DNA from: a virus
Virus record (IMG/VR): IMGVR_UViG_3300025597_000036
Strand: one strand, 5' to 3'
Length of the DNA: 31,588 bases
Shown: positions 128-31,588 of the stretch, piece after piece
How positions within the stretch are numbered: the stretch's first letter is position 1
How the letters are laid out: the number at the start of each line of letters is the position of its first letter
The notes under the pieces: generated by a model
What the model was told of the DNA's origin: nothing
The model's database searches: none
What the model saw: the letters and a program-made list of their open reading frames with translations, nothing else
Translations under genes and position numbers: made by a program

Positions 128-451
128 GCGCATCCGAATTTCTACCGAAACAGAAACCTTGCGATGCGGGTTCTCGCCGGAAAGATCAAGCCTGGTGGCA
201 ATCTCGCAGATCTGCTCGGTCAGATCCTGCACCAGGTCAGCCTTCTCTATCATTTCCGCCAGTGCTGCCACGTGCGCTTTGAAGGTGTCACTCTGCTGCA
301 TCTCGGTGCAGGTCTTGCTTTCAAGTGCGCTCGCCCAGCTGTGCTCAGAACGCGCAACAGCCAGTTCACCCAACAACTTTTCCAGGCGTTCGCGCAACTC
401 GTAAACATTCACTTTCATCGGCGCCAACGGTTCAATCGTTAGAATATTCAT
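1..451 (-). CDS. Wrap-around CDS, 5' part (codons 1-150 of a 177-aa protein). Coiled-coil early protein, weakly Gam/Gp157-like.
   Basis: ATG at 451-449 (MNILTIEPLAPMKVNVYELRERLEKLL...) is open down to base 1. Base 1 is the first base of codon 151, and the frame continues at 31461. The listed plus-strand ORF 86..442 is its antisense shadow. The function call rests only on architecture: N-terminal coiled coil, C-terminal beta-rich part, and position next to the replication module. Confidence 0.6.
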   Translation of the reverse strand, partial: MNILTIEPLAPMKVNVYELRERLEKLLGELAVARSEHSWASALESKTCTEMQQSDTFKAHVAALAEMIEKADLVQDLTEQICEIATRLDLSGENPHRKVSVSVEIRMRYRHDEAVAWAIERHPELLTFNKIKLERAMLEERPEFVSFLEV

Positions 452-641
452 CGCAGATCCTTTCTATGGTTTGACCAGGTTGTGCAGGCTGTTGTTCACC
501 CAGCTCTTCCAGCCAGGTAAACAACTCGTTGATTCCAGCTTTTAGTGCCAGCCGGCGCTCCGGCGGGCAAGGCACGAAAACAACCTGCATTTCTGTTTTT
601 GTGATTCCTCTCATACTCACCTCATCGACCGTGTCTTTCAT
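432..641 (-). CDS. Hypothetical early protein (69 aa)
   Basis: ATG at 641-639 (MKDTVDEVSMRGITK...) has GAGG 9 nt upstream. The listed start at 695 is a GTG inside a perfect 9-bp hairpin and is probably not used. The 3' end overlaps the next gene start by 20 nt. Confidence 0.55.
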   Translation of the reverse strand: MKDTVDEVSMRGITKTEMQVVFVPCPPERRLALKAGINELFTWLEELGEQQPAQPGQTIERICDEYSND

Positions 642-675
642 GGTGGACGGCCTCGACTCGACCGAGGAAGATCCC

Positions 676-701
676 GCACACGTGAGGGGGGACACGTGTG
701 C
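676..701. other. Perfect 9-bp hairpin with G6 (plus) / C6 (minus) loop
   Basis: gcacacgtg-agggggga-cacgtgtgc, flanked by direct gatccc repeats. Confidence 0.8.
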
Positions 702-1291
702 CGATCCCGCCCGAGGTGCCGGTTACGTCATCCGGCGGTTTTCGTTAGGTAGGCTCAACCCGTGAATATAGTTTGCATTCCTATGCAGTTGATCGTCGAA
801 GCCGTCGATCTCCTATTTACCAGTCACGAATCAACTAGAATTTGGTTCCACCAGTCTGGAGCACTTTTCTCACTTCTTACCTGGAGCTCATGACTGGTGC
901 ATCAAACTGGCGGCTCGGCTAACTTCCCTCTCCGGAGAGCTGCTCCTTCACGCCGATATTTCCGCATAAATGCTGGAGACACCACCAGGTCTTGCCTATT
1001 CAGTTGTAAAAGTTCTCCCGGTTACACTATCCGGATTACCGTCTCCACACGTCTCCCGCAAAAATCAGGTGATGGTCGGGTTGTTTGAAGAGCTACGCTC
1101 TACACCTCACGGTAATGCCAACCCTTATCCTCAAAATTGGGTATAGTGGACGCTTCAGGTTCGACCCACGACCAGGCCAGCATGAGGGGGGCATGTCAGT
1201 CTGTCGAGCGCCCAGGGATTGCAACTCGCCGGATCACCGGGTGTTGCTTTACCAGTAAATAAGCCGGTTACTTCACCGGCGAATTGCCTTG
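696..1291 (-). other. ORF-free 0.6-kb segment; candidate structured RNA or regulatory region
   Basis: No ORF of 60 aa or more lies on the gene-bearing minus strand. All three stop codon types are scattered through all three minus frames. The segment holds many local hairpins and mutually exclusive long-range complementarities. It is by far the largest gap in a genome where most genes abut or overlap. Confidence 0.5.
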
Positions 1292-1798
1292 TCATTGTGT
1301 TGCCGCCATCGCGTTCTCGTAAATCGCCTCTTCGCGGATCTTCGTCACGCCGGTCGACTGCAGCAGCACAATCGCGTCATTCACCGCCCGCTGCGCCTCG
1401 AGCAAAAAAGCAGTCCGCTTGAACGGATGCTCCAGGTTCAGCGAGAGATCGCTGATCTCCACCAGCACGTCGTCCATCTTTTCGTACGCACGGAACACGA
1501 AACTCGCTTCTCCATCCAACCGGTCGATTTCCTGCGCCGGGATGCGTGTCACACCTAAAAGCAGTTTGACTTCGTTCACCCCGCGCTGGATTTCAAGCAG
1601 TTTGGGAAGAGCTTCGTCAGGGTCCTTCAGGCATGAAGCTGCCTTTGAGATCAGGCCGGTCAAAACCAGCAGTTGTTCTGCAGCCAGTCGCACAAACTCG
1701 GCTGCTTTGCTGTTTCGCGGGATTTCATTGACCGGAACTAAAGGTTTTGTTGCCATTTCTCCCCGTTTCACTCCCGAATCTTCCCGATAATCGCTCAT
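1292..1798 (-). CDS. Hypothetical early protein (168 aa)
   Basis: Long ORF co-oriented with the early operon. An alternative start is ATG 1756, preceded by GGGGAGA. No motif recognised. Confidence 0.7.
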   Translation of the reverse strand: MSDYREDSGVKRGEMATKPLVPVNEIPRNSKAAEFVRLAAEQLLVLTGLISKAASCLKDPDEALPKLLEIQRGVNEVKLLLGVTRIPAQEIDRLDGEASFVFRAYEKMDDVLVEISDLSLNLEHPFKRTAFLLEAQRAVNDAIVLLQSTGVTKIREEAIYENAMAATQ

Positions 1799-2086: not shown

Positions 2087-2141
2087 TTGTGTATATATGT
2101 TTACTTAGTTAACATTATATAACATTGTCAACATTTGTCAA
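2087..2141. promoter_or_regulatory. Operator cluster of the immunity switch
   Basis: AACAT boxes lie in 10-bp phase at 2111, 2121 and 2130 (aacattatat / aacattgtca / acatttgtca). An inverted ATGTT at 2097 gives ATGTT-N9-AACAT. The boxes overlap the -10/-35 of the minus promoter and a weak plus promoter (TTGTGT 2087-2092, 17 nt, TAACAT 2110-2115). Confidence 0.55.
2114..2141 (-). promoter_or_regulatory. Consensus sigma70-type early promoter (PR-like)
   Basis: The minus strand reads TTGACA (2141-2136), 16 nt, TATAAT (2119-2114), about 40 nt upstream of ATG 2073. Confidence 0.65.
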
Positions 2142-2813: not shown

Positions 2814-3137
2814 ATGGAAGAAACCTTTGTATGTGCAGTTTGTGGCCAGAAAGAACCCAAAGTAAGACTCACCAGGCTTGGAGACAAACTCTACTGCTCT
2901 GACCACCTTGAACAGGGTCAGCAGGATCTCGCCATCGCAGAACTGGCAAAGAAATTTCCAGACCAGAACACTCTAAATCTCTATCTTTTTGATCATGTTG
3001 AACGACTTCTCACCAACAGTAGAGATCAAACTAAATACCTGAAATCGATCAAATCGATTCTCACCTTCTTCGTCGTGATCACCATTCTTGGTATCATCGT
3101 TTCTCTTCTTGAGTCATGCGCAGGATCCTTATATTAA
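2814..3137 (+). CDS. Zn-ribbon-like, C-terminally membrane-anchored protein
   Basis: Strong SD (AGGAGGGAAAATG). N-terminal CAVCGQ...YCSDH motif. C-terminal hydrophobic helix ILTFFVVITILGIIVSLL. Confidence 0.65.
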   Translation: MEETFVCAVCGQKEPKVRLTRLGDKLYCSDHLEQGQQDLAIAELAKKFPDQNTLNLYLFDHVERLLTNSRDQTKYLKSIKSILTFFVVITILGIIVSLLESCAGSLY

Positions 3138-4132
3138 AAATCAAATCAACCTTTGAGCGCATGCTCTCTGCGCTCCACCTCACCGCATTCCACCCCGCGC
3201 TGGTCGCCCTGATCCTCGCCACACTCCTCATGGTCCCGGTTTGCATGATCATCGCAGTCGTCAGCGGAGCGCGGGTTCTTACCTCGAGCACTGGTGTACC
3301 AGCTCCGGTGCTCGAATCAACGGCCGTGTCCATCTCTGTTTCTACCGAAACACCCTTGCCAACACTCACACCATCATCCATTCCGACCAAAATCTACACC
3401 AACACACCCACGCTCACTTTCACTCCAACAAAAACATTTACTCCCACACTAACCTTCACCCCATCCGCGACACCTACTATCACCCTGCCGGCTGCTCAGG
3501 GTGCCAACTGTGTACCAGATGAAAACGAGCGCGTTGTAGCCCGCGTGGTAAGCGTTACTGACGGTGATACCATCGTCGTGGATATCGGCGGTACCCAGTA
3601 CAAACTGCGTTACATAGGCATCGATGCCCCCGAATCAAGCGCTACAGGTGGAAAACAATCCACCGATTACAACCGCCAGCTCGTGGAAGGAAAAACAGTC
3701 ACCCTGGTCAAAGATCACTCCGAAACTGACCGTTACGACCGATTGCTGAGGTACGTTTTCGTAGGTGACACCTTTGTGAATTACGAAATGGTGCGTGCCG
3801 GCTTTGCCACATCAGGATCATGGCCACCAGACACCGCCTGTGACCAGGTGTTTGCAACTGCAGAACAATCAGCCCGACTGAATCAGCTTGGCTTATGGGT
3901 ACCAACGATCACCCCTGTGCTTTACATTCCCCCAGCTGCCATATCTACCAGCTCAGGCATTATCTCAGGAAGCGGATCGAATTGCGATCCATCCTACCCT
4001 GATGTATGCATTCCACGATACCCGCCTGATCTCGATTGCAGTCAGATCCCATACCGCCGTTTCCGCGTCATTCCGCCAGATCCCCATTCATTTGACCGTG
4101 ATGGTGACGGCATCGGTTGTGAAGGTGGATAA
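3116..4132 (+). CDS. Membrane-anchored extracellular thermonuclease (SNase) with C-terminal Excalibur Ca-binding domain
   Basis: N-terminal TM helix ALVALILATLLMVPVCMIIAVV, then a Thr/Pro linker. SNase signature: VTDGDTIVVD...LRYIGIDAPE...DRYDRLLRYVF...NYEMVRAGFA. Excalibur signature: NCDPSYPDVC...FDRDGDGIGCE. The start is uncertain (ATG 3116 or 3161). Confidence 0.88.
   Translation: MRRILILKIKSTFERMLSALHLTAFHPALVALILATLLMVPVCMIIAVVSGARVLTSSTGVPAPVLESTAVSISVSTETPLPTLTPSSIPTKIYTNTPTLTFTPTKTFTPTLTFTPSATPTITLPAAQGANCVPDENERVVARVVSVTDGDTIVVDIGGTQYKLRYIGIDAPESSATGGKQSTDYNRQLVEGKTVTLVKDHSETDRYDRLLRYVFVGDTFVNYEMVRAGFATSGSWPPDTACDQVFATAEQSARLNQLGLWVPTITPVLYIPPAAISTSSGIISGSGSNCDPSYPDVCIPRYPPDLDCSQIPYRRFRVIPPDPHSFDRDGDGIGCEGG
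3404..3475 (+). repeat. In-frame 18-nt tandem repeats encoding TPTLTF/TPTKTF/TPTLTF/TPSATP
   Basis: Read directly from the codons at 3404-3475 of the nuclease linker. Confidence 0.8.
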
Positions 4133-4133
4133 A

Positions 4134-5786
4134 ATGAATAACTCACAAATCACCTTTCCCCCTGGCTCTTCCGTTGTCGCCTACCTTCGCGATTCAGGCG
4201 GTGATGAGCAAGATCTTTCCGTTGCACAGCAACAAAATGTCGTAGAAAAATGGTGCACCGAACACAATATCACACTGTCACGGGTATTTTCAGACGTTGC
4301 TACTCCAGGCTCTTCCACGATTGGACGTTCTGCATTCAAACAAATGATCTCTCACTTTCATAATGTAAATTGTGCTGACAAGGGCGTGATCATCTGGAAG
4401 TTCTCCCGCTTCTCACGCGATATCGACGATGCCCAGTTCTATCGCGCAGATCTGCGCCGGCGCGGTTATATCGTATATTCCATTCAGGATAACATTCCAG
4501 ATACCACAGACGGCCGAATCTACGAGGCCCTCCTGGATTGGATGAACAACAAGTTCCTCGAGGATCTGTCGGTCGACGTGAAGCGTGGCCTGCACCACAT
4601 CGTCCGTGAATATGGAGCTGTACCAGGTACCCCGCCGAGAGGTTTCAAACGTGAAATTACGACAATCGGCATTCGGCGCGATGGATCACCTCATAAAGTC
4701 TCCCGCTGGGTCCCTGATCCTGAATGGTGGAATATTTGCCGGCGTGCCTGGGAGCTACGCTCAACCGGCGTTCCTATCAGACAAATCCACAAGGAACTAC
4801 ACATATTCGGCTCAATGCAGTCCTACACCACATTTTTCACCAACCGTATTTATCTTGGAGAGCTGCATTACGGAGAAATCACCATTCCAGATTATACCGA
4901 TCCAATGATTACAAAAGAGGAGTGGGATGCTGTTCAATTCCTCAACAGGAAAAATTCAGTGGAGTATGATCCCATGAAACGAAATCAAAACCCTCACCAC
5001 CCCAGGAGGATTTCAAGTTCCTTCCTGCTCAGCGGGTTGATTTACTGTGTCCGCTGTGGTAGTCTGCTGAATGGAGAAGTGCTGCGATTCAAAAACGGAC
5101 AATATCTAATGTACTATCACTGTGGAAATGCGCACCGAAACCTGGACTGCAACGCCAGGCGCATTCCAAAAGCCGCGATCGAAAAAGTTGTTATTGACCG
5201 TCTGAGAGAATACATCCTTGATCCAGCTTTGATTGCCGAGCGCGATCGAGAATATGCCATAGCGCATTCTGGAGAACGCGACAAAATCCACGAGGAACAA
5301 AAAAAAGTAAAATACGAGATCTCAGAATTACAGCGCAAAATGGATAACATCTCCCGCCAGATCGCTGATGACCCTTCCCCTTCGCGTACCTTAATGACCC
5401 TAATAAAAGAACTTGAGCAACAAGAACAAAAGAAAATCGATGAACTCGAACGACTGAGATCAATCGAAAACAGAGAAACTGTGTTTATTGGATCGCCAGC
5501 AAATTATGCCAGATTGTCAGAAAAATTTACAACAGAACTTGTCTCAGGCGATCCTGAGCGTATTAAATTAATCCTGCGAGGATTGATCGATCGAATATCA
5601 GCTGAACGTGATGGTGACTACATCAGAGGAATGATTTACTTCTTCAACCCTGAATTAGGCGAAGATAACTCCACGTCCTCAGATGAATTATATATGTCTA
5701 TGAATCAGAGCCACCGAAGGGGCTCTTCATATACACATATTAATGTTTACAATGTCGATTTTTGCACCACCCTCCCCCACAAATAA
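4134..5786 (+). CDS. int: Large serine recombinase (integrase)
   Basis: SD AAGGTGG precedes ATG 4134. Resolvase-type N-domain VVAYLRDSGGDEQDLSVAQQ...FSRFSRD. Recombinase domain plus Zn-ribbon (CVRCGS...YYHCGNAHRNLDC). C-terminal coiled coil. Confidence 0.9.
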   Translation: MNNSQITFPPGSSVVAYLRDSGGDEQDLSVAQQQNVVEKWCTEHNITLSRVFSDVATPGSSTIGRSAFKQMISHFHNVNCADKGVIIWKFSRFSRDIDDAQFYRADLRRRGYIVYSIQDNIPDTTDGRIYEALLDWMNNKFLEDLSVDVKRGLHHIVREYGAVPGTPPRGFKREITTIGIRRDGSPHKVSRWVPDPEWWNICRRAWELRSTGVPIRQIHKELHIFGSMQSYTTFFTNRIYLGELHYGEITIPDYTDPMITKEEWDAVQFLNRKNSVEYDPMKRNQNPHHPRRISSSFLLSGLIYCVRCGSLLNGEVLRFKNGQYLMYYHCGNAHRNLDCNARRIPKAAIEKVVIDRLREYILDPALIAERDREYAIAHSGERDKIHEEQKKVKYEISELQRKMDNISRQIADDPSPSRTLMTLIKELEQQEQKKIDELERLRSIENRETVFIGSPANYARLSEKFTTELVSGDPERIKLILRGLIDRISAERDGDYIRGMIYFFNPELGEDNSTSSDELYMSMNQSHRRGSSYTHINVYNVDFCTTLPHK

Positions 5787-5792
5787 CCTCAC

Positions 5793-5808
5793 TGTTTCCG
5801 CAGAAACA
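5793..5808. terminator. Hairpin between convergent int and late operon (bidirectional terminator and/or attP core candidate)
   Basis: tgtttc-cgca-gaaaca has a 6-bp stem. It lies 7 nt after the int stop and directly abuts the stop of the 5809 gene. Confidence 0.35.
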
Positions 5809-6856: not shown

Positions 6857-7930
6857 CTACTCCAGGTACGTCACTTCATTCCCGTTCACCACTTCCTTCT
6901 CACAGCACCATTGCCGCCACCCAATTTGCACCCACGTGTAGCGCCCACTTACCACCCGTTGTAACACATGCACTACTTCCCCCTTGCTGAGCTTTTCGCT
7001 GTAAACGACTCCAGATAACACCCCGCTGATCAGATTTGGCGCTCCCTTACTCAACCTTACACGGAGCCCATCAACTTTTACTGTTTTCTTCTCAACTCTC
7101 ACCATATTTTCCTTCTCATGCACTTCATCATCATGAAAATCTTCTGGATTCACGACCACTACCGGCGTTTCCTCAATTGGAGTTGTCGCTTTCTCTCCAA
7201 AAAACGCCAGCAATTCCGCTTCAGTTTTACACCACACATTGATATCCACTTTTGCTTCCTCAAACCCCATCGCGCGTCCGTCAGGCACCTGGTCCCCGTT
7301 GATATCGCCAATGCTGTTCACCTGAATCATCACCAGGTCATTCCACCCGGCTTTTAAAACCACACCGCGCACAAAGTCTTCGCTCACCGGATTATAATTC
7401 GCAGCCCATAACGGCCTCCACCGGCGGTATTCCCCAGGGCGTTCCAGCCACCCTGTTGGCCAATATTCACCAGTTGCCCGACCATTGGCATCGTCAATCA
7501 CCTTCATCATATTATCTGCAATGGTCATCGCTGTTGGCCACACCGATTCAATTTTTGCGCAACCCGGTGCAGTTTCCTCATCTAAAAAAACTGGCATCGG
7601 GTGCACCTTCACGATCTCTGCAACTGCGTTACCCTGCAGGATCCCCCACTGCGAAGACGTGAGCTTCAAATACGAGTGCGACAGGTAATTCATGTACGCA
7701 AACTGCCCGAAAAGCATCCCTGTTTTGTAAGTTTCTTCCATGAAATACCAGAACAACCGATCAATTCGTGGCTTGCCATTCGCCACATACCCGTCCAGGC
7801 TGCGCGCAATCACAAACCTACAGCCAGAGTCTTTGAGTAACTTTAAATCTGGCATTTTGGGCGTATCTGCATAATCCTGCCAATGGCTCACATCAACACC
7901 CCAGATTTTATTATTAAGATTAATGATCAT
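6857..7930 (-). CDS. Endolysin: GH25 muramidase with C-terminal SH3-like cell-wall-binding region
   Basis: N-terminus IWGVDVSHWQ is typical of GH25. The C-terminal roughly 80 aa (KVDGLRVR...YTWVQIGWRQW) looks SH3b-like. No signal peptide is apparent. Confidence 0.82.
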   Translation of the reverse strand: MIINLNNKIWGVDVSHWQDYADTPKMPDLKLLKDSGCRFVIARSLDGYVANGKPRIDRLFWYFMEETYKTGMLFGQFAYMNYLSHSYLKLTSSQWGILQGNAVAEIVKVHPMPVFLDEETAPGCAKIESVWPTAMTIADNMMKVIDDANGRATGEYWPTGWLERPGEYRRWRPLWAANYNPVSEDFVRGVVLKAGWNDLVMIQVNSIGDINGDQVPDGRAMGFEEAKVDINVWCKTEAELLAFFGEKATTPIEETPVVVVNPEDFHDDEVHEKENMVRVEKKTVKVDGLRVRLSKGAPNLISGVLSGVVYSEKLSKGEVVHVLQRVVSGRYTWVQIGWRQWCCEKEVVNGNEVTYLE

Positions 7931-24158: not shown

Positions 24159-24551
24159 TCAAACATTTTGACCCCCCTCCCCTTGGACCATCCGTACCGC
24201 ATTCCCAAACCCGCCGTCATACATCACCGTTTTCTTTGAGTGACACCGGCTGCACAACCCCTGCAGATTGCTCTCCGCGTCCGTTCCACCTTTTGACCTC
24301 GCCACCACATGATCCACATGCACCGCCCTCACCTGCACTCCAACGTGATCCCCAAACGGATCGCAGCACAGCGGATGTTTCTGCAGATACGCAACCCTAA
24401 CCCTCTGCCATGCATAGTCATACCCGCGCGCACTCGCACTCCCGCGCTCCTGCTCTCGCTTCCTCCTGTGGACCGCACACAGCGAACCAGACTGTACCAA
24501 CTCAGTACAGCCAGGATACACACACGGCTTCAGCGCACGCATCGGACTCAT
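24159..24551 (-). CDS. HNH endonuclease (packaging-associated)
   Basis: VHVDHVVARSKGGTDAESNLQGLCSRCHSKKT plus N-terminal Cys pairs. The gene sits immediately upstream of terS. Confidence 0.85.
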   Translation of the reverse strand: MSPMRALKPCVYPGCTELVQSGSLCAVHRRKREQERGSASARGYDYAWQRVRVAYLQKHPLCCDPFGDHVGVQVRAVHVDHVVARSKGGTDAESNLQGLCSRCHSKKTVMYDGGFGNAVRMVQGEGGQNV

Positions 24552-31378: not shown

Positions 31379-31588
31379 CTATTGAATAACCGCGTCTTTC
31401 AACGGGTCTTTGATTTCAGCAGGAAGGTACTCAAACAAATCGTTGTCGATCTGCGCTGAAGGCACCTCCAGAAATGAAACAAATTCCGGCCGCTCTTCTA
31501 ACATTGCTCGCTCAAGTTTGATTTTGTTGAAGGTCAACAGTTCCGGGTGGCGCTCGATAGCCCAGGCTACCGCCTCGTCGTGGCGGTA
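31379..31588 (-). CDS. Wrap-around CDS, 3' part (same 177-aa protein; 31462-31588 duplicates 1-127)
   Basis: The frame from 451 continues ...PEFVSFLEVPSAQIDNDLFEYLPAEIKDPLKDAVIQ and ends at TAG (31381-31379). The distance from 31462 to 31381 is 81 nt, a multiple of 3. Confidence 0.6.
   Translation of the reverse strand, partial: YRHDEAVAWAIERHPELLTFNKIKLERAMLEERPEFVSFLEVPSAQIDNDLFEYLPAEIKDPLKDAVIQ
31462..31588. repeat. Terminal direct repeat copy 2 (circular-closure overlap)
   Basis: Identical to 1-127. The unique genome length is therefore 31,461 bp. Confidence 0.95.

Follow-up and report, generated by a model that had tools for sequence, protein, structure and literature searches.

Conserved, covarying RNA modules, two of them predicted to be tRNA-shaped with a C-rich loop, in a gene-free gap of a temperate phage early operon

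We analyzed a 31,588-nt stretch of viral DNA, IMG/VR record IMGVR_UViG_3300025597_000036 (the whole stretch is called the window here, and L-numbers such as L007 or L010 label the loci with which it was compared), and in particular a gap in its minus-strand early operon between a 168-aa gene and a 60-aa gene. We found that this gap, at ~615-1291, contains a conserved and covarying cluster of predicted structured RNA modules on the transcribed strand, two of which are tRNA-shaped and carry a C-rich loop. The first-pass annotation had proposed a functional non-coding RNA region rather than a missed gene, and this part stands, but its three mechanistic options (a large structured phage RNA, an antitermination or attenuation leader, and a protein-binding array) do not hold as they were worded. 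That annotation had also named conservation among related phages, covariation, and a hidden small protein gene as the points on which its proposal would turn; the segment is kept in divergent relatives, its helices covary, and no conserved small protein accounts for it. Taken as a whole, our best reading is that the modules are co-transcribed and that the tRNA-like elements (TLEs) may be cut into small RNAs of ~72 nt that act in trans via the C-loop, a reading that we regard as evenly poised between right and wrong.

Each TLE is ~72 nt long. Its acceptor stem has 6 bp, its T-arm has a GUUCGA-type loop, the discriminator is A, and the ACC(A) tail is encoded, while the D and anticodon arms are replaced by one long irregular arm of 12-18 bp with the loop UG-CCCCCCU-CA. 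The window and L010 have two copies each, in which the 5' end reads GGGCG(G/C) and the 3' end (C/G)CGUCC-ACC(A); the T-loop is GUUCGAAYC in L010 and GGUCGA(A/G) in the window. TLE-A (1144..1216, minus strand) has the acceptor GGGCGC/GCGUCC, an arm at ~1172-1206 with the loop AUG-CCCCCCU-CAU, a T-arm-like hairpin, and the tail ACUA, and it scores 65.5 bits (E 1e-12) with our covariance model (CM) R1. TLE-B (641..715, minus strand; 63.9 bits, E 2.6e-12) has the acceptor GGGCGG/CCGUCC with G3.U70 and A73, an arm at 676-701 with the loop U-CCCCCC-U, the T-arm CCUCG-GUCGAGU-CGAGG, and the tail ACCA. Folding and covariation back both elements. The two C6-loop hairpins on the transcribed strand were absent from the earlier list of features; each is the arm of a TLE, and the transcribed strand has no other C6 anywhere in the 31.6-kb genome. 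A miniature inverted-repeat transposable element or IS200-type element bounded by the two C6 hairpins was also considered and rejected, since the hairpins are arms of tRNA-like folds.

Pattern scans of IMG/VR recovered further TLEs in L017 (two copies), L019, and L185, a metagenome pattern scan added only L135 (a metagenome contig), and a later scan with an unrelated pattern yielded those of L199 and L200, again from IMG/VR. When nine TLEs were folded independently as single sequences by minimum free energy (MFE), they gave a Y-shape made of acceptor stem, long arm, T-arm, and a 4-nt 3' tail. CM R1, built from nine copies, scored its training copies at 64-85 bits and the next best match at 28.5 bits across 81 sources (~750 kb); L199 and L200, which were outside the training set, reached 74 bits (E ~3e-14). 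In the alignment of all 11 TLEs, 90.4% of cells pair compared to 72% in shuffles and 32-45% in slid controls, double (compensatory) changes are present at 14 of the 19 pairs, and the covariation score is 0.525 compared to 0.17 in shuffles, none of 500 of which reached it. The T-stem of this alignment is 5 bp and its T-loop G(U/G)UCGA(A/G)NC, position -1 is U in 9 of the 11, position 73 is A in all 11, and CC follows in 10, so that the acceptor, T-arm, discriminator, and CCA of a tRNA are all found. G3.U70 is present in both window TLEs and in 7 of 11 overall, the others having G-C, A-U, or C-G. No cloverleaf with a D-arm and a 7-nt anticodon loop was seen in the folds, by ARAGORN, or with the Rfam tRNA model (E<=10 on 550-1450). 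Likewise, the window TLEs gave no ARAGORN or Rfam tmRNA match and have neither a tag open reading frame (ORF) nor a D-loop analogue GGNUUCGAC. True tRNAs on the same strand adjoin TLEs or C-loop hairpins in L017, L143, L185, and L200. When the TLE pattern was run against 185,579 species genomes, all 105 matches lacked the hairpin, and we therefore treat them as chance.

The C-loop hairpin also occurs outside the tRNA-like scaffold. The exact 15-mer GGTTGCCCCCCTCAA is present at 43 IMG/VR loci, at least 13 of which are 12-18-bp hairpins whose lower stems are unrelated yet complementary. In an ungapped, loop-anchored alignment of 21 C-loop hairpins, comprising TLE arms and stand-alone copies, 80.6% pair compared to 58% in shuffles, and the covariation score is 0.589 compared to 0.196 (0 of 500 shuffles). 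Four of the C-loop copies, those of the window and L010, were found via protein homology, independently of any loop pattern. In L174, L159, and L148, a near-consensus extended -10 promoter ends 5-10 nt before the hairpin, and in L174 and L159 a strong intrinsic terminator lies 40-80 nt past it; L142, L158, and L155 look by eye like the same promoter-hairpin unit. Since the genes next to the unit are on the opposite strand in L174, L148, L155, and L158, the stand-alone units appear to be small-RNA genes of ~100-125 nt rather than operon leaders. The units are on unrelated IMG/VR contigs (L174:3299-3460, L159:1428-1570, L148:8721-8800, L155, L158, and L142), and several carry a second motif, UUUUA-GGGC-N3-UAGCC, past the hairpin. 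Six IMG/VR contigs (L191, L192, L197, L198, L201, and L204) have GGTGGGGGGTTATGCAGATTCCATGCCCCCCTCATGG in common, and in these a G6 20 nt upstream can pair with the C6, which would make them a different, possibly self-sequestered form.

The remaining conserved parts of the gap are a three-way junction, which we call module M, and a hairpin followed by a boxA-like tract. Module M (906..989, minus strand, ~85 nt, from RNAalifold) consists of P1 CUGGYGG/CCGCCAG, a P2 hairpin, P3 UCGGC/GCCGA, and P4 GGAG/CUCC; RNAalifold gives P1 8 bp and makes P3 continuous with P1 on the 3' strand. Its unpaired tracts GUCUCC, GAAAYA, and GGGAAG are invariant, compensatory changes occur at four pairs, and its helices have seven G.U and no A.C pairs. 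We found it in the window, in L010 and L013, and in L015, an otherwise unrelated early operon in which it lies upstream of a RecT-like gene, and CM R2 (104 bits) detected no further copy in 748 kb. In L013, P1 of module M is followed by U7 and then by the next gene. A riboswitch or ribozyme identity for the module was rejected, as it has no Rfam match. The hairpin UCCGG-AUAGUGUAA-CCGGG (1017..1035, minus strand), one of three CCGG...GUAACCGG hairpins, is compensated in L010, where CCGG has become CUGG/CCAG (CCUGG/CCAGG). Directly 3' of it is the boxA-like single-stranded tract GAGAACUUUUACAACUGAAUAGG (995..1017, minus strand), which aligns with GAGUUCUUUGAAAAUCGAACAGG in L010, and this pair of features (995-1035) is ~1.1 kb from the promoter. 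A boxA-like tract also follows the C-loop hairpin in L019, L164, L143, and L017. Rather than one large structured RNA, as had been suggested, the gap therefore holds separate small modules that recur independently, in other orders and copy numbers, in other phages.

Our best reading would work as follows. RNA polymerase starting from the promoter at 2141..2114 would traverse the untranslated region, and the boxA-like tract may bring in NusB/NusE, which would shield the untranslated transcript from Rho. Judging by shape, RNase P could recognize the stacked acceptor and T-arm of each TLE, aided by the U at -1 and the 3' ACCA, and cut at G1, while tRNA 3'-end enzymes would trim the other side. 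Excision would free stable small RNAs and split the early mRNA, with the downstream message keeping a 26-nt leader. The freed RNAs would then act in trans through their exposed C-rich loop; other phages carry the same loop in stand-alone promoter-hairpin-terminator genes. By analogy with the 6C small RNA (sRNA), the most economical target would be single-stranded and G-rich, for example a ribosome-binding site (RBS) of the AGGGGGG type, and a host protein is equally possible. If the target is an RNA, it would be in the host, because complementary sites are not enriched near 20 C-loops and the phage has a single, chance-level GAGGGGGG. This is the only exact complement of the C-loop on the transcribed strand (24172-24179, minus), at the end of a 130-aa gene and ~30 nt before a putative small-terminase start, and the only candidate self-target. 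Cis antisense targets in the style of P4 and C4 were considered for the C-loops and rejected, with no enrichment near the 20 loops. A more speculative extension, which we would bet against, is that the C-loop RNAs form a widespread, uncatalogued class of phage effector RNAs. The acceptor/T-arm would then be a general "expression cassette" that excises arbitrary arms (the C6 loop, a CUGGAACAAGGCAAA head, or bodies like a tRNA-like domain (TLD)), and C6 would titrate a host factor (Rho or a poly-C/KH-type protein) or silence G-rich host RBSs; in its boldest version, the TLEs would be alanylated and interfere with tmRNA/SmpB rescue.

Several points weigh against excision and action in trans. RNase P cleavage, TLE expression, and the target are all putative, with cleavage modeled from shape alone, and the TLE alignments behind the pair counts were fitted to the model. 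The acceptor and T-stem stack to 11 bp (6 + 5) compared to the canonical 12 bp. Thermodynamic support is weak, with individual module fold z-scores mostly 0 to -2.9 and similar sense and antisense energies, and the excess of G.U over A.C pairs is modest (13 vs 10 for the TLE and 21 vs 14 for the C-loop hairpin). That the loop is invariant in the IMG/VR copies is partly a product of the search, whose patterns contained it. A complementary G-rich site showed no enrichment within +/-1.5 kb of the 20 C-loops (window p 0.58-1.0 vs shuffles), and a single GAGGGGGG on the transcribed strand of the window does not exceed chance expectation. Finally, the hairpin and boxA-like arrangement would also suit a role in cis.

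That cis-acting role is the main rival, which we consider unlikely: a nut-like or rrn-like processive antitermination site in which the C-loop hairpin or the GUAA hairpin at 1017-1035 would be boxB, the U-rich tract boxA, and Nus factors, perhaps with an N-like protein, would ensure read-through into the replication genes. As nutR does, the cluster lies right after a cro-like gene and ahead of replication genes, and this position puts it in place of lambda nutR/tR1. A hairpin followed by a boxA-like tract is seen in several phages, and this is also the order of the rrn leader, boxB-boxA-boxC (PMC10250234). By sequence, the boxA resemblance appears close in L019 and L164 (GUUCUCUUACAAACAAUUUCCA), with GUUCUUUGAAAA in L010, whereas in the window it is partial and weak (GAACUUUUACAAC, ACUUUUA vs CUCUUUA); the references are rrn boxA UGCUCUUUA, the rrn boxA-spacer UGCUCUUUAACAAUUUA, and the lambda nutR boxA-spacer CGCUCUUACACAUUCCA (PMC2724277), and the match of GAACUUUUACAAC to a lambda CGCUCUUA-like boxA is likewise partial. 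In L159 and L142 the C-loop hairpin precedes a terminator and then same-strand genes, small Arg/Lys-rich peptides in the RNA regions of L017, L019, L135, and L185 are candidate N-like proteins, and the upstream 78-aa protein of L010 has an Arg-rich N-terminus. However, an antitermination site in the window gap would have no strong intrinsic terminator to counter, and its loops (CCCCCCU or AUAGUGUAA) are not GNRA-like pentaloops, so no boxB is found. The window C-loop hairpins are also apart from the boxA-like tract, inside tRNA-shaped scaffolds that a tethered nut RNA would not need. Four of six promoter-proximal units face opposite-strand genes and so lead no operon, no N-like protein is common to the loci, and the neighboring window proteins have no Pfam or PHROGs match to one. 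The antitermination or attenuation leader of the first-pass annotation is therefore left with one hairpin and the boxA-like tract (995-1035), the sole terminator-like site in the gap being weak.

A role of the TLEs as mimics of tRNA-Ala or of the tmRNA TLD that can be aminoacylated seems to us quite improbable; AlaRS would then charge them, and they would interact with EF-Tu, SmpB, or the ribosome, for instance to disturb ribosome rescue. G1-C72, G2-C71, G3.U70, A73, and CC(A) form the AlaRS identity set and are present in both window TLEs. The TLE family resembles these RNAs further in the T-loop sequence GUUCGAAYC and in the stacking of acceptor on T-stem. The succession of acceptor, linker, long helix, and T-arm follows the plan of the tmRNA TLD minus the mRNA part, and a loop-agnostic scan for the scaffold also gave TLD-like RNAs with the motif GGUUUCGAC (L265 and L287). 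On the other hand, 4 of the 11 TLEs have G-C, A-U, or C-G instead of G3.U70, which therefore does not define the family, the tail of TLE-A is ACUA, and the TLEs have no D-arm, no 7-nt anticodon loop (U33, R37), and no tag reading frame. They escape ARAGORN and the Rfam tRNA and tmRNA models, and the window copies lack the D-loop analogue. Decaying tRNA genes or functionless spacer left by recombination between phage modules are very improbable. The region is indeed mosaic, with a recombination boundary to L007 at its 5' edge and no conservation of nt 737-900 in L010, phage tRNA clusters are known to decay, and the thermodynamic z-scores are unremarkable, but 11 TLEs of diverged phages retain three helices by compensatory changes together with the same loop. 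Two TLE copies per genome persist in the window and L010 despite 28% divergence of the flanking protein, and elsewhere the C-loop hairpin has its own promoter and terminator. A DNA-level element seems to us extremely improbable, be it a replication origin, a partition or packaging site, or a DNA-binding-protein array on CCGG...GUAACCGG or the C6/G6 palindromes. Three direct copies of CCGGTTAC-N-CCGG, the two G6/C6 hairpins, a replication-initiator gene ~2 kb downstream, and the only mildly asymmetric G.U and A.C counts would fit such an element, but the region has no AT-rich or iteron structure, module M has its 7 G.U vs 0 A.C pairs, and many features are strand-specific (the T-loop sequence, the ACCA tail, the U-tract terminators and promoters on the C-loop strand, and the same-strand tRNAs). 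Least probable of all are unannotated small protein genes, such as ORF46 (1295..1155) or ORFs of 43-63 aa on the plus strand. The start codon of ORF46 overlaps the upstream stop codon (ATGA), and its first ~20 codons correspond to the C-terminal extension of a 184-aa homolog in L007, but the L007 frame ends at a TAG at about window position 1233, ahead of TLE-A, no ORF is kept between the window and L010 across the gap, and conservation takes the form of paired-column covariation and is not codon-like.

Among known systems, the closest in kind are the P1/P7 C4 antisense RNA and the P4 CI RNA (Rfam C4, RF01695), which are 77-79-nt phage RNAs embedded in the transcript of an early or immunity operon. 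Pairing of their 5' and 3' ends gives a stem like a tRNA acceptor, with CCA encoded, RNase P excises them, and their hairpin loops are the functional parts. The TLEs would likewise be small phage RNAs in an operon transcript with a tRNA-acceptor-like stem and hairpin loops as functional parts. They differ in having a true T-loop-like arm and a single long arm, in showing no sequence or CM similarity (Rfam C4 gave no match in the gap at gathering score or E<=10), and in that C4 and P4 CI act on complementary sites nearby in the same transcript, none of which were found near the window TLEs. The T4 stable RNAs "species 1" and "species 2" (rnaD and rnaC) are part of a tRNA cluster, have tRNA-like termini, and mature by tRNA processing. 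They are co-transcribed with tRNAs, and TLEs adjoin true tRNAs in L017, L185, and L200. The T4 RNAs, however, belong to a lytic T-even phage, are of another size, have no detectable homology and no invariant C-rich loop, and the window phage has no tRNA gene at all by ARAGORN. To our knowledge, the excision of regulatory RNAs from operons by tRNA mimicry is documented only in this handful of cases (P1/P7 C4, P4 CI, and the T4 stable RNAs), and phage small RNAs of known function are few.

The C-rich loop itself recalls the actinobacterial 6C sRNA, whose C-rich loops pair with the G-rich RBS AGGGGGG without a chaperone (PMC6486639). Both have hairpin loops with at least six C, and that RBS is exactly complementary to the window loop CCCCCCU. 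6C, however, is a chromosomal sRNA with two hairpins and its own terminator, whereas the window form is phage-borne, each of its tRNA-like scaffolds carries a single C-loop, the two C6 hairpins lie 500 nt apart, and Rfam 6C gives no match. Bacterial Y RNAs (YrlA) are described as tRNA mimics (PMC4201824); they too are non-coding RNAs with a tRNA-like domain including a T-arm and occur in some phages, but they are defined by a Ro60/Rsr-binding helix and a neighboring rsr gene, and the window has no Rfam match to them. No Ro-like protein was found among 20 window proteins scanned with Pfam and PHROGs. A phage small RNA cut from an operon by tRNA mimicry and an sRNA with C-rich loops are thus already known in kind; what is new here is the scaffold-plus-loop family, module M, and the stand-alone C-loop genes, which match no Rfam 15 family and no cultured phage.

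The same scaffold also carries other payloads. L164 and L135 have TLE-shaped RNAs with other arm heads and covaried acceptors (GGCCGG/CCGGUC, GAGCGG/CCGCUC, and GGACGG/CCGUCC). An alternative head, CUGGAACA(A)GG(C)AAAC instead of the C6 loop, is seen at L164:7532-7628 and 7781-7868 and on the minus strand of L135, ~150 nt downstream of its TLE; the same short motif also occurs unscaffolded in the L010 gap (L010:5680-5700). The loop-agnostic IMG/VR scan for the acceptor/T-arm scaffold gave 57 matches with canonical geometry, comprising 32 true tRNAs (mostly tRNA-Ala), one known L017 TLE, and ~19 tRNA-like RNAs uncalled by ARAGORN, some of which may be atypical tRNAs. In L265 (866-944), L287 (minus strand), and L250, all from IMG/VR, we observed ~80-nt RNAs with a tRNA-Ala-type acceptor, a T-arm, and a tmRNA-like motif GGUUUCGAC(G), with no tag region and no ARAGORN call; from their sequences, they may be phage tmRNA mimics reduced to the tRNA-like domain. 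Four related phages encode very small basic peptides of 34-40 aa with the core ..VARKTLxRSxxNxEFxNxxRIxRM.. inside RNA-rich regions (L017:2076-2234, L135 on the minus strand ~70-270 nt upstream of its TLE, L019, and L185), and these, which the window does not have, could be RNA-binding or N-like factors.

With regard to the gap itself, no minus-strand ORF of at least 60 aa lies in 696-1291, the longest being 43 aa (1093..1224) and 46 aa (1155..1295), stops interrupt all three minus frames, and the genes around the gap abut or overlap, all in agreement with the first-pass annotation; this six-frame view rules out a missed gene, a recoded gene, or a pseudogene. The individual features that had been listed are also present at 718-736, 773-788, 791-810, 928-939 (a palindrome), 1089-1101, and 1263-1280, as are GTCTCC at 1041 and 1051, GGAGAC at 975, and the ACCAGTC/GACTGGT set. 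The description of the segment as hairpin-dense did not hold up, however, as the MFE of the 650-nt gap is no more than chance would give (z -1.44 for the transcribed and -2.48 for the opposite strand). Its bounds also shift from 696-1291 to ~615-1291. The gene callers place the start of the downstream 60-aa gene at ATG 641, within the ACCA tail of TLE-B. In L010 and L013 its homologs start MGKGVTHTEFQIV, with MRGITKTEMQVV as the aligned window counterpart, and point to ATG 614, which is most likely the start rather than 695 or 641, judging from this alignment. The gene would then span 432..614 (minus strand), with the Shine-Dalgarno sequence GAGGTGAG at 616-623 and its start 26 nt past the 3' end of TLE-B, and the untranslated stretch would be ~615-1291.

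At the other edge, the 168-aa gene (1292..1798, minus strand), which has no family match, is a frameshift variant of the 184-aa protein of L007, the closest relative. The L007 protein, which ends ...RQFAGEDAGLFTGMATPG*, reads through the first ~60 nt of the gap (1291..1233; equivalent L007 region 1450-1548). The weak terminator-like hairpin GCCGGUGAAGUAACCGGC followed by UUAUUU (1263..1280, minus strand) therefore lies in coding or formerly coding sequence. In the window, the C-terminal peptide of L007 is in another frame, that of the 46-aa ORF 1155-1295 (minus), which runs from the ATGA overlap into TLE-A; the frameshifted version of the window is common to all six contigs from different samples. 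Further along the transcript, the tract CCCAAUUUUGAGG (1129..1141, minus strand) is directly 3' of TLE-A and is kept as CCCUUUUUUGAG after TLE-1 of L010. Two GGAGAC repeats (1039..1057, minus strand) are complementary to the conserved GUCUCC of module M, which would allow an alternative pairing. A spacer with hairpins at 848-900, 791-810, and 773-788 (773..900, minus strand) is lineage-specific and not kept in L010. The leader hairpin GCCGG-AUGACGUAA-CCGGC (718..736, minus strand) lies 7-8 nt upstream of TLE-B, and L164 has a hairpin at the same position before its TLE. Five phages have a hairpin GCCGG-GAGAGA-CCGGC, with GRCA before it, usually a short distance upstream of a TLE or module M (L010 ~5569-5584 and ~5791-5806, L017 ~2784-2797, L164 ~7757-7771, and L150); the invariant GUCUC of module M is complementary to the hairpin loop, GAGAGAC.

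The first 127 nt of the window are identical to nt 31462-31588, which indicates that the window covers a whole, circularly permuted genome of a temperate phage (31,461 bp; circular or terminally redundant), and the early operon runs on from position 1 into 31588 downward. Apart from a helix-turn-helix repressor gene (2154-2609), a small ORF, and the genes for an SNase-type nuclease and a large serine recombinase, which are on the plus strand, the genome is encoded on the minus strand. As listed, the nuclease ORF (3116-4132, plus) and the recombinase ORF (3888-5786, plus, TTG start) overlap by 245 nt; the recombinase probably starts further downstream, since it is called at 528-561 aa in relatives. 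The early promoter, TTGACA-16-TATAAT (2114..2141, minus strand), is a perfect sigma-70 match (12/12) and faces the repressor. It would drive, in order, a cro-like 69-aa gene, the 168-aa gene, the RNA cluster, the small gene, a 177-aa gene, and later the replication initiator (phrog_1408). From this promoter down to position 615, the minus strand has no other promoter-like site.

Searches for known relatives were largely negative. With Rfam 15 at gathering score, only adjoining true tRNAs were matched across the window and 22 related loci, and none in the window; at relaxed E-values, four loci again gave nothing but such tRNAs and the gap (550-1450) only noise of E>=1, which agrees with the earlier statement that the segment fits no known RNA family. 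ARAGORN found no tRNA or tmRNA anywhere in the window, and blastn against 50,697 cultured phage records and E. coli genomes gave no match to it. As an anchor in IMG/VR, the 168-aa protein had no relatives, and a search of 5.8 billion proteins returned only itself and an 88% variant; the gap is 100% identical in the contigs concerned, which are therefore uninformative for covariation. The downstream 177-aa protein led to two diverged relatives, L010 (72% identity) and L013 (45% identity). L010 has another upstream gene (78 aa) and a 750-nt gap with the same modules in a different order, including the two copies of the TLE, and the L013 contig starts inside the gap. No protein family is common to all loci within +/-5 kb, so the protein-binding array of the first-pass annotation would have no shared partner protein among them. 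A likeness of the 168-aa protein to an L010/L019-family protein, noticed by eye, was not supported (hhalign probability 0.2). Also rejected as identities for the element were an attP tRNA fragment, a retron or diversity-generating retroelement RNA, a CRISPR-repeat mimic, and a single large GOLLD/ROOL-like RNA. The literature on C-rich-loop phage RNAs and tRNA-like prophage RNAs yielded no description of this element.

The TLE scaffold, with covarying helices, is present in at least seven lineages of uncultivated temperate phages, in which its payload is a fixed CCCCCCU loop and, in some cases, other heads. Genome annotation currently overlooks these RNAs, as ARAGORN and Rfam 15 are both blind to them, and the 11 TLEs, ~20 C-loop hairpins, and four M modules provide seed alignments for new RNA families. 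If the proposed processing is true, these phages would have a modular route from mRNA to small RNAs, and the C-rich loop would point to a conserved host target.

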